Source: Escherichia coli (GTDB lineage: Bacteria > Pseudomonadota > Gammaproteobacteria > Enterobacterales > Enterobacteriaceae). Taken from it: 3,815 nt of DNA. Every line of letters begins with the position of its first letter. The first letter of the stretch is position 1. The notes under the pieces were generated by a model that ran no database searches, was not told the DNA's origin, and saw only the letters and a program-made list of their open reading frames with translations. Positions 2,537-3,728 of this stretch are shown in pieces. The translations under genes were made by a program, and so were the position numbers. The stretch lies in NCBI RefSeq assembly GCF_003334335.1, contig NZ_QOWQ01000081.1. One strand, written 5' to 3'.

Positions 2537-2583
2537 GTCAATAGGTTAGTATGGTTATACTAGGACGAAGTGATACTGATAGT

Positions 2584-3381
2584 TTATTCTCTGAAATAAA
2601 TTGAGAATTGTTTTGGTGTTATTCCAAAAAAATATTTGAATACTCTAATGAAATATGGCATGCTAGATATTCCTATACTTTCTGAAACGGAGGAGAGCGG
2701 TAATTCATTATCCAGGATTAATTGAAGGGCTCTATCCATTCTGGCCTGAAGTAATAACTGACTGAAAGATGTTTTTTCTGAACTCAGGCGCTTTCTTACT
2801 GATACTTCAGATATATTGAATTTATCTGCAATCATACTTATCTTCCAATTCTTTGATAGATCTTTTCTTAACTCATTTTTTACCTTATCGGTAAAGGTTA
2901 TTCCACATGACGCATATAAAGAGCTTATTATCTTTGCATGATTTTTCATTGTCGCTATAAGATAGGCCGATTTAATAACTTTTAGTTTTAAGTCATTTGT
3001 TCTTGTAATAAGCTCAAATAGCTGGTACTGAGGTGCAATGGAGTTTTCCGTAATTATTTTTTCTCTCTGAATATCACAGCCCCCCATAAAGAGTGGATAT
3101 ATTTCTTTCAAAATATCTTTCAGTAGTATTTGCGATTTTCTATCGAAACTCACAATACTAAATGGCGGTAGTTTTTCGTTAACTTTGACGATCTCACATG
3201 AAAATGTCATATTTTTTTCTAGAAAGAGAAAATTGTCTTTAGTACAGGTAATACAATCTCTTTCATTTTTGAGTGTGATGAAACAATTATCAGTGTGCAT
3301 TATTGTAAAAGCATTTAGAGTTATTCTTTTTATTCTTATAAAGTTTGTTGTTAGTTTATTGTCATTTATTTCCTTTAGCAT
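2584..3381 (-). CDS. AraC/XylS-family transcriptional activator of the Rns/CfaD/AggR/VirF (virulence/fimbrial regulator) subfamily, 265 aa, apparently intact
   Basis: Uninterrupted 265-codon ORF, ATG at 3381-3379, with GGAG 7 nt upstream (plus-strand CTCC at 3389-3392). The C-terminal half has the dual helix-turn-helix AraC signature and is colinear with Rns as recalled (ours KIISSLYASCGITFTDKVKNELRKDLSKNWKISMIADKFNISEVSVRKRLSSEKTSFSQLLLQARMDRALQLILDN...IGISSMPYFIRVFKYFFGITPKQF versus Rns KIIESIYISSVSFFSDKVRNLIEKDLSRKWTLGIIADAFNASEITIRKRLESENTNFNQILMQLRM...IGISSASYFIRIFNKHYGVTPKQF). Length matches Rns/CfaD/AggR (265 aa). The gene is strongly AT-rich like that subfamily. Confidence 0.88.
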   Translation of the reverse strand: MLKEINDNKLTTNFIRIKRITLNAFTIMHTDNCFITLKNERDCITCTKDNFLFLEKNMTFSCEIVKVNEKLPPFSIVSFDRKSQILLKDILKEIYPLFMGGCDIQREKIITENSIAPQYQLFELITRTNDLKLKVIKSAYLIATMKNHAKIISSLYASCGITFTDKVKNELRKDLSKNWKISMIADKFNISEVSVRKRLSSEKTSFSQLLLQARMDRALQLILDNELPLSSVSESIGISSMPYFIRVFKYFFGITPKQFSIYFRE

Positions 3382-3600
3382 AATTTATCTCCAAGGCAAG
3401 AAGAATAATCATTTTAGTATAAATTAATTCATGGTTAAAATATTAATGCATACAAAGTGCATTTTTTTATCTAAATCATCTCTTTTTTAATGGACACTTT
3501 TTGAGCCAATGGGTGATGTTATTTTTACATTTATGCATAGGAAATGAATTTTACACAAAATTCGATAATAAAAAACCTCAATCAGATATGTGTAAGAGGC
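3382..3600 (-). promoter_or_regulatory. AT-rich 5' region of the regulator gene (ribosome-binding site plus presumed promoter and regulatory sites)
   Basis: GGAG ribosome-binding site 7 nt before the ATG. About 220 bp of very AT-rich DNA with A/T tracts and a possible -10 TATACT (plus-strand AGTATA at ~3415-3420). I could not identify a convincing -35/-10 pair by eye, so this is a region call only. Confidence 0.3.
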
Positions 3601-3728
3601 CTTTGTAAGTATCCCACATAATAGAACCATTCACATTTAGAGATCTTCCGGCATACTCATTCGTAAGCGGCTCGCGAGGACTGTATTGATACTTACTGAG
3701 AGCTCAGATCAACTTTCCAGGGTGACAG

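Follow-up and report, generated by a model that had tools for sequence, protein, structure and literature searches.

Does an AT-rich regulator locus that is bounded on both sides by the ends of insertion sequences (ISs) represent a module carried by those elements, or the remainder of a larger low-GC cluster into which the elements were inserted? This question is raised by a stretch of 3,815 nucleotides from Escherichia coli (RefSeq assembly GCF_003334335.1, contig NZ_QOWQ01000081.1; the whole stretch is hereafter called the window), in which an intact gene for an AraC-type regulator lies between an IS903-type end and an IS3 end. An earlier note, made from the sequence alone, had proposed that the regulator was acquired from a low-GC source and that the locus could in principle move as an IS-flanked module. 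The analysis described here leads to a different answer: the part of the regulator module that survives at positions 2537–3604 belongs to a virulence-type cluster of low G+C content, acquired horizontally and located in a tRNA-Ser island near ghrA and the csg genes. The AT-rich block is thus a remnant of this cluster rather than a movable unit, and we consider it likely that the gene encodes the master regulator of an enteroaggregative-type regulon that lies on the chromosome and has been eroded by ISs.

The G+C content of positions 2537–3600, counted per segment, is 29.9% (likewise 29.9% for 2537–3604), as compared with 48.5% for positions 1–2536, so that the description of the sequence from 2537 to approximately 3600 as strongly AT-rich holds. 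The sliding-window calculation that the earlier note had proposed as a check was performed across the window with a width of 200 bp and confirmed a step at approximately 2500 and 3600: the G+C content is 44–55% over positions 1–2500, falls to 22–35% at approximately 2500–3600, and rises again beyond. A two-breakpoint likelihood fit placed the low-GC block at 2520–3640, with a gain of approximately 56 nats over a single composition, and the block has a z-score of −12.2 against the flank composition of 0.485. The regulator coding sequence (CDS) has a G+C content of 30.6%, with 33.5%, 30.8%, and 27.4% at codon positions 1, 2, and 3 (the last being GC3); all three positions are low, and the AT-biased codon usage that had been read from the letters is borne out. 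Upstream of the gene, the G+C content is 28.1% for 3382–3651 and 26% for 3382–3604, and it is 48.1% for 3652–3728. The neighboring IS and adhesin sequences had been described as ordinary in composition, which agrees with the value for positions 1–2536 and with approximately 45% in an EspI-like autotransporter fragment at 802–1671, to which the term “adhesin” referred. The AT-rich block is real and lies far beyond chance. If it were a local chance fluctuation or a mutational artifact without bearing on origin, for which the small size of the block is the sole argument, neither the z-score, the likelihood gain, and the low G+C content at all three codon positions nor the same composition in homologues and in other non-IS genes of the island would be accounted for, and the probability of this explanation is negligible.

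A G+C content of approximately 30% is normal for the family to which the regulator belongs, the Rns/AggR family: the values are 31.1% for aggR, 28.2% for cfaD, 30.5% for virF, and 31.6% for the closest plasmid homologue. It is equally found in the aatD-, aatC-, aatB-, aatA-, and aatP-like genes of the island (28.4%, 29.7%, 29.2%, 28.4%, and 30.6%, respectively), and the other island genes to the right of the regulator have values of 35.9% (dispersin-like gene) and 39–43% (fimbrial genes); the IS pieces between the island genes have values of 43–56%. Because approximately 30% G+C is common to aggR, cfaD, virF, and the aat-like genes of the island, the ISs are to be regarded as higher-GC intruders into a low-GC cluster. 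For the same reason, the proposal of a low-GC source stands insofar as it concerns horizontally acquired DNA, as indicated by a patchy distribution and a tRNA-linked island, but a low-GC donor for the regulator alone is too narrow.

The boundaries of the block were defined by comparison with complete elements (Table 1). On the left, a complete 1057-bp IS903B element from a Pluralibacter plasmid ends in ...TTCAACAAAGCC (...CAAAGCC), which corresponds exactly to positions 2525–2536, where the window reads ...CCGAAATCTGATTTATTCAACAAAGCC to 2536; the IS903 end is therefore correctly placed at 2536. A different placement was suggested by IS903B BLAST alignments that reach 2543–2558, and was rejected as these are a chance extension past the 1057-bp element ending at 2536. 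On the right, positions 3603–3662 are 95% identical to the sequence that adjoins orfA on its upstream side in an intact IS3-family element of plasmid p1-H9, and the adjoining piece at 3663–3728 is 85–94% identical to IS66/ISCro1 copies and is uninterrupted in strain EC24. This strain provides the empty site of the IS3 that begins at 3729, reading ...GGGTGACAG followed directly by ATCGCGTACC... (ATCGCG...), as against ...GACAG-IS3-CAGATCGCG... in four other genomes; the IS3 is present in 37 genomes and absent from four. From the empty and filled sites it follows that the IS3 end at 3729 was correctly assigned and that this element entered the IS66 remnant later, by simple insertion, duplicating 3 bp of its target (CAG). 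Since 3605–3728 consists of the debris of two further ISs, the compositional block is 2537–3604 rather than 2537–3728, and the native AT-rich DNA consists of the 798-bp gene flanked by 47 bp on its 3′ side and 223 bp on its upstream side. The view that the locus is bounded by IS ends on both sides is thus correct for 2536 and 3729 as IS ends, but native DNA stops at approximately 3604 and the right side consists of three nested scars. The two bounding ISs, an IS903-type element and an IS3, belong to different families and are unrelated, as had been noted, and the IS903-type element is dead, with frameshifts, an internal stop, and a missing N-terminus.

The core of the block (2560–3660) was identified in 42 of 5,426 complete E. 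coli genomes, always on the chromosome and at least 99.7% identical (42 of 44 chromosomal places, one per genome), and on none of 72,556 plasmids, which are matched by the IS66 piece alone. The left junction is identical in 37 of 42 genomes, the other five carrying an extra IS3-family element at 2573–2578; the right junction is identical in 37 of 41, the other four lacking the IS3. The ten places listed with different neighbors in a larger assembly collection all keep 1983–3728 contiguous and at least 99.6% identical. A scan of 100,044 species-representative genomes yielded a single match outside E. coli, with the same flanks (L027, JAIJJM010000532.1; L-numbers denote comparison loci from genomes with related sequence). 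This 2,263-bp contig, part of a metagenome-assembled genome of “Collinsella sp.”, is 99.8% identical to 1576–3815 with IS sequence at both ends, and was rejected as a misbinned E. coli contig. The search for 2537–3728 with different flanks thus recovered one context only, across the complete genomes, plasmids, assembly collection, and species representatives; the earlier note itself had named constant flanks as an observation that would speak against it.

These data bear on the possibility that the regulator locus is an IS-bounded cassette, similar to a composite transposon, that came from a low-GC donor and is mobile as a unit. The IS ends at 2536 and 3729, the compositional sharpness of the block, and the high local IS activity, with insertions and deletions that vary between genomes, are all compatible with such a cassette, but the bounding ISs are of different families, the left one is degenerate, the IS3 among the nested scars on the right has its own CAG duplication, and no target duplication brackets the block. 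Moreover, the junctions are the same everywhere (37 plus five of 42 on the left, 37 plus four of 41 on the right, the ten further places, and the metagenome contig), and the plasmids are devoid of copies. Neither the same IS or compatible ends on both sides nor more than one genomic context, as would characterize a composite transposon, was found in these collections. A mobile cassette is contradicted by the data and effectively excluded, and we assign it almost no probability; the proposal that the locus could move as an IS-flanked module fails on its unrelated ends, nested scars, and constant flanks.

The genomic surroundings instead identify the block as part of an island. In strain SW071611, the order from left to right is the tRNA-Ser gene beside ghrA (approximately 29 kb to the left) and the csg genes; a CP4-like module with Ag43; a type I restriction system containing darTG; an IS600 fragment, the EspI fragment, the IS903 remnant, the regulator, the IS66 remnant carrying the IS3, an IS481, and a group II intron maturase fragment; five genes in the order aatPABCD; IS66 and IS481 fragments and a gene for a 115-amino-acid (aa) protein; genes for a fimbrial major subunit, an AfaD-like protein, an usher, and a chaperone; and iro remnants with further ISs. 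The aatPABCD-like, dispersin-like, and aggregative adherence fimbria (AAF)-like genes lie outside the 3.8-kb window, within 16 kb in related genomes. The aatPABCD-order products are a MacB-type permease, a TolC-family protein, an adaptor, an ABC ATPase, and an Lnt-like acyltransferase, and the set is present in L001, L002, L003, L005, and L006; the TolC-family protein is 51% identical to AatA of pAA plasmids, and aatP and aatB lie beside that match. The 115-aa protein matches the dispersin structure 2JVU with E = 1e-37 and has a signal peptide followed by glycines, as expected of an AatD substrate (PMC7478709), and the fimbrial major subunit matches AggA and AafA weakly (E = 4e-6). Parts of the island were found in 42–54 of the 5,426 genomes; SW071611, ECONIH1, and S1-SRL-01-C are examples of strains in which it is intact. 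The patchy distribution, the adjacency to tRNA-Ser, and the mosaic content, with ISs, darTG, type I restriction, Ag43, and iro remnants, are those of a tRNA-linked island, and an integrase was not identified in it.

Several further features of the island were observed. The RefSeq start of the AAF-like major subunit (L001 26964–27479, 151 aa) seems too short, as an in-frame ATGAAAAAG located 60 nt upstream adds a typical signal peptide. The dispersin-like locus (L001 26100–26620) occurs as two allele groups across 54 genomes, at least 99% and 98.7% identical to L001, and since the regulator segment differs by at most 0.3%, the parts of the island differ in divergence. Directly to the left of the IS debris (L001 2931–12266) are the type I restriction-modification genes, in which darT-darG separates hsdS from hsdR, and then an M48 peptidase gene; the type I/darTG defense module is conserved in all carriers examined. 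Positions 2573–2578, just 3′ of the regulator stop codon, are a hotspot: in addition to the five genomes with the IS3-family insertion, approximately 12 others have a deletion of approximately 10 kb starting there, by which the regulator and the whole aat-like operon are lost and the dispersin-like and fimbrial genes are kept. The left side is then retained to 2578, and the aap-like (dispersin-like) gene is only approximately 2.3 kb away. In L021, an IS3 forms the direct junction between the regulator and a GGDEF-domain gene with a pgaA-like gene; in L019, a DeoR-family regulator gene and malX-type phosphotransferase system genes adjoin the regulator. The regulator gene of strain 315 is cut at 3050 by an IS1 with a Tn10-type tet(B) region.

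The protein (WP_021523955.1) is, as judged from its sequence, an intact activator of the Rns/AggR family and an uncharacterized, divergent member of that well-known family. It matches the structures of CsvR (9GFP, E = 2e-48, residues 10–265 against query 13–264) and Rns (6XIU, E = 2e-47, residues 11–263 against query 13–264) over the full length, and Pfam HTH_18 was detected at residues 184–259, corresponding to an AraC-type double helix-turn-helix domain. The identity is 37% to AggR, 36% to CfaD, and 31% to VirF, and 43–45% to three unnamed E. coli relatives (P0002–P0004); four relatives were recovered by a word-indexed homologue search, and a tblastn search against plasmids yielded at most 44% identity. 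An alignment of seven family members contains 44 invariant columns, and both recognition helices are nearly invariant across AggR, CfaD, and VirF (R196, K197, R198, and L199; S240, Y243, F244, and I245), making recognition of a similar DNA site plausible. Proteins of the Rns/AggR/CfaD/VirF subfamily are approximately 260–270 aa long, with a β-rich N-terminal and a double helix-turn-helix C-terminal domain. Full-length alignability, a low-GC gene (approximately 28–31%) in AT-rich acquired DNA, linkage to adhesin and dispersin/Aat genes, and predicted A/T-tract-TATC sites at candidate target promoters are all shared with this subfamily, and the regulator lacks counterparts of His20 and Arg75, the residues with which Rns contacts a fatty-acid carboxylate. 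P0002–P0004 have Asn at the first position and keep the Arg, and VirF keeps the His and has Ser at the position of Arg75; these contacts belong to Rns and do not define the family as a whole. NCBIfam gave no curated model at its cut-off, only sub-threshold AraC-domain matches such as HilD and GadX; no Rfam family was found in the window, and no paper naming WP_021523955 or the regulator was found in the searchable literature library.

Candidate target promoters were evaluated with the description of the AggR site, WWWWWWWTATC with at most two mismatches in the A/T tract, followed after 21–23 bp by a −10 element (PMC6392122); additional requirements were A and T at positions 2 and 6, respectively, and agreement with the −10 element at four or more of its six bases. 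A predicted site and −10 element in the correct orientation precede all three candidate operons, headed by the aatP-like, aap-like, and chaperone genes (Table 1). The joint chance of the three matches, in dinucleotide shuffles of the upstream regions, is approximately 1.6e-4, uncorrected for the choice of criteria.

The regulator's own upstream region is less informative. A promoter and terminator scan of 2500–3760 gave six promoter-like sites, with 5.7 expected, and zero terminators, and neither a −35/−10 match nor two bare AggR/Rns-type cores upstream of the regulator exceed what shuffled sequence yields. Nor was significant homology found between this region and the sequences upstream of aggR, cfaD, virF, and the plasmid homologue. 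Because a spaced site is missing, the cores are not significant, and upstream homology is lacking, autoregulation would be proposed by analogy only. An alignment of 15 copies has nine variable sites, of which six are located in 3492–3590, two in the 798-bp CDS, and none in 2300–2583; this comparison of coding with upstream variation (two against six sites) includes ten loci that were selected for an identical protein sequence.

These observations suggest the following model. The cluster would once have been contiguous and later dissected by ISs, with repeated insertions and IS-mediated deletions cutting it into AT-rich pieces separated by IS debris of approximately 48–55% G+C; because the cluster has been dissected in this way, the regulator looks like a compositional island. 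Similar to AggR and Rns, the regulator may bind A/T-tract-TATC sites located 21–23 bp upstream of weak −10 elements and thereby switch on the aatPABCD-like export/acylation system, the dispersin homologue, and the AAF-like chaperone-usher fimbrial operon. To judge from the family, H-NS probably silences the AT-rich promoter of the regulator itself, and autoactivation is possible. The regulator is not mobile by itself and is passed on or lost together with the island.

Several observations weigh against this model. The motif used is that of AggR, to which the regulator is only 37% identical, and Asn23 and Ser78 (window approximately 3313–3315 and 3148–3150, minus strand) occupy the positions of His20 and Arg75, which in Rns hold the carboxylate of the inhibitor decanoate (PMC8329261). 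No full site-plus-spacing match was found in the 221-bp upstream region of the regulator, and the two bare cores are within chance (38 of 200 whole-window shuffles gave at least two). Control sites may have been lost, since only 223 bp of native upstream DNA survive and the rest was removed by ISs. An ANR (Aar-type) gene was not found in six loci by tblastn with one ANR query, ANRs being short and divergent, and the fimbrial usher is disrupted in strain NCTC86. In L019 and L021, the regulator is kept and its presumed targets have been removed by large IS-mediated deletions, and some genomes keep the aap-like and fimbrial genes without the regulator.

The main competing explanation is that the regulator is an orphan relic stranded by IS erosion, which controls nothing and persists through recent spread of the island. 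The truncation of its upstream region at 223 bp, the absence of an AggR-type promoter match before the gene, the approximately 12 genomes that lost the regulator and the aat operon, the one IS1-cut copy, and the two genomes that retain the regulator without targets are in line with such a relic, and as the divergence is at most 0.3%, the intact open reading frame (ORF) could merely reflect a young age. However, the window and nearly all carriers have an intact ORF, and the exact 265-aa protein has index entries in 3,393 blocks of the assembly collection, whereas frameshifts, stops, and truncations abound in the neighboring IS903-type and EspI sequences; the gene still has a ribosome-binding site and a −35/−10 match, and AggR-type promoter signatures are preserved at all three presumed target units. 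We therefore regard a relic as unlikely, though well within consideration, and favor the master regulator of an IS-eroded regulon.

Comparison with AggR of enteroaggregative E. coli, which is encoded on pAA plasmids, reveals the same two-domain architecture, 265 aa, approximately 31% G+C, and near-invariant recognition helices; aggR is likewise linked to aatPABCD, the dispersin gene, and AAF-type fimbriae, and AggR uses WWWWWWWTATC sites 21–23 bp from the −10 element (PMC6392122). The present system differs in its 37% identity, in its location in a chromosomal tRNA-Ser island rather than on pAA, and in the splitting of its units by IS debris. AggR shares the His and the Arg with Rns, whereas the regulator has Asn23 and Ser78, and single-query tblastn found no Aar/ANR gene. 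Rns, CfaD, and CsvR of enterotoxigenic E. coli (6XIU and 9GFP) are the best matches among solved structures, are also encoded by low-GC genes, and share 36–39% identity; they act as master regulators for pili and for the dispersin-like CexE together with its Aat system (PMC7344145). They differ in being plasmid-borne, and the decanoate contacts of Rns are not conserved in the regulator (PMC8329261). Outside its own cluster, the closest proteins are P0002–P0004 (e.g., QMG97696.1 from the pig-farm plasmid pRHB27-C20_3; 31.6% G+C), which share the Asn at the His20 position, and the pRHB27-C20_3 homologue adjoins an ANR-family gene and a fimbrial operon; these proteins are plasmid-borne and 271–272 aa in length, keep the equivalent of Arg75, and have other neighboring genes.

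Part of the island is already on record from a single strain, NCTC86, the original isolate of Escherich. The NCTC86 genome paper reports an Aat/dispersin homologue and a non-functional AAF-like locus, with the term “AraC” absent from its text (Dunne et al., 2017; PMC5382810), and the CexE study places the NCTC86 protein in the dispersin clade (PMC7344145). These loci belong to the same island as the regulator: NCTC86 carries the regulator segment at 99.7–99.8% identity with the same junctions. The assemblies of this strain disagree at the C-run at window position 3080 (...cagccccccat...), where CP019778 has a 1-bp deletion and frameshift and LT601384 is intact, and a third assembly, LR217818, contains the dispersin-like gene and no match to the regulator. 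This discrepancy suggests an assembly error in the homopolymer, IS-mediated loss that differs between stocks, or a combination of the two.

Table 1. Features of the window and candidate AggR-type sites upstream of island genes (positions in the window unless given relative to a gene).
Feature	Position	Strand	Basis and remarks
IS66-family right end	1–290	+	tnpC C-terminus (ORF 75–260), then terminal repeat ending ...GACGCTTAC at 290; inserted into IS600 fragment
IS600 (IS3 family) orfB fragment without N-terminus	291–790	+	ORF 280–759; RefSeq “IS3-like element IS600 family transposase, incomplete” in L001–L004
EspI-like serine-protease autotransporter, internal fragment of passenger domain, pseudogene	802–1671	-	Local BLAST coordinates; G+C approximately 45%
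Degenerate IS903-type (IS5-family) element	1683–2536	+	RefSeq: N-terminus truncated, frameshifts, internal stop; right terminal repeat ends at 2536
Native DNA 3′ of regulator, 47 bp	2537–2583	-	
Predicted Rns/AggR/CfaD-family AraC-type activator gene, intact, 265 aa, WP_021523955.1	2584–3381	-	ORF; structure and Pfam matches
Native upstream DNA, 223 bp	3382–3604	-	GGAG ribosome-binding site 3389–3392; −35/−10 match 3438–3411; two bare cores
Bare AggR/Rns-type core ATTTTTTTATC	3461–3471	+	Within 3382–3604
Bare AggR/Rns-type core TTTTTATTATC	3574–3564	-	Within 3382–3604
IS3-family left-end remnant, 58 bp	3605–3662	+	Starts with TG at 3605; cut off by IS66-family end
IS66-family right end	3663–3728	-	Terminal repeat GTAAGCGG... 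and last tnpC codons (...LSPWKVDLSSQ*); continues past IS3 insertion
IS3 left end and orfA start	3729–3815	+	Begins TGATCTTAC... at 3729; inside IS66 remnant
Predicted site, aatP-like gene	92 nt upstream		AATAATTTATC-22-TATTCT; core at L001 24273–24263; match in 170/2000 dinucleotide shuffles of upstream region (0.085)
Predicted site, aap-like gene	121 nt upstream		GTTTTATTATC-23-TAGTAT; core at L001 26588–26578; 121/2000 shuffles (0.06)
Predicted site, chaperone gene	106 nt upstream		GCTTTTTTATC-22-TATTAT; core at L007 1719–1709; 61/2000 shuffles (0.03)

The IS66-family piece at 1–290 is 100% identical to an ISEc43-type copy in NCTC86, which is located there at another position, namely at window position 1983–1990, and is itself split by an IS110-family element. 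The IS66/IS600 junction at 290/291 was found in none of 16 comparison loci; as it is absent from these and the NCTC86 copy lies elsewhere, the window represents yet another IS variant of the island. The EspI fragment is annotated in six RefSeq genomes as [quoted passage not shown], and the IS903-type element is 80–89% identical to plasmid IS903B copies. The 58-bp IS3-family stub on the right matches 29 E. coli plasmid records. On p1-H9 (L008 171–2560), the intact IS3-family element is located approximately 1.2–2.4 kb from a PerC-family regulator gene and a gene for an unnamed helix-turn-helix protein, and on plasmid NZ_CP070907.1, a weak match to the C-terminal domain of the regulator lies approximately 2 kb from the same IS3-family stub.

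In the islands and plasmids of E. coli, it is usual to find AT-rich AraC-type virulence regulators beside IS debris. The compositional feature of the window is itself ordinary for the gene family, and its modest value lies in its context. As a general caution, a sharp step in G+C content at IS ends can mean that an IS was inserted into low-GC DNA, and not necessarily that an IS carried low-GC DNA. More tentatively, with a probability that we put slightly below even, the island may represent a cryptic chromosomal counterpart of the AggR regulon in approximately 1% of E. coli, driven by a divergent regulator. Polymerase chain reaction assays for pAA genes might miss such a regulon, because the identity is only 37% to AggR and 51% to AatA, and the regulator may respond to a different signal, because the fatty-acid contacts of Rns are lacking; with Asn23 and Ser78, its response to decanoate or oleate would be expected to be weaker than that of Rns, or absent. 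In addition to NCTC86, the carriers include recent isolates from human patients, pets, and wastewater. If the regulon is active, these carriers would have an aggregative-adherence toolkit that pAA-based assays might miss, and the IS-driven losses across genomes would document the decay of a regulon in commensal and extraintestinal lineages.

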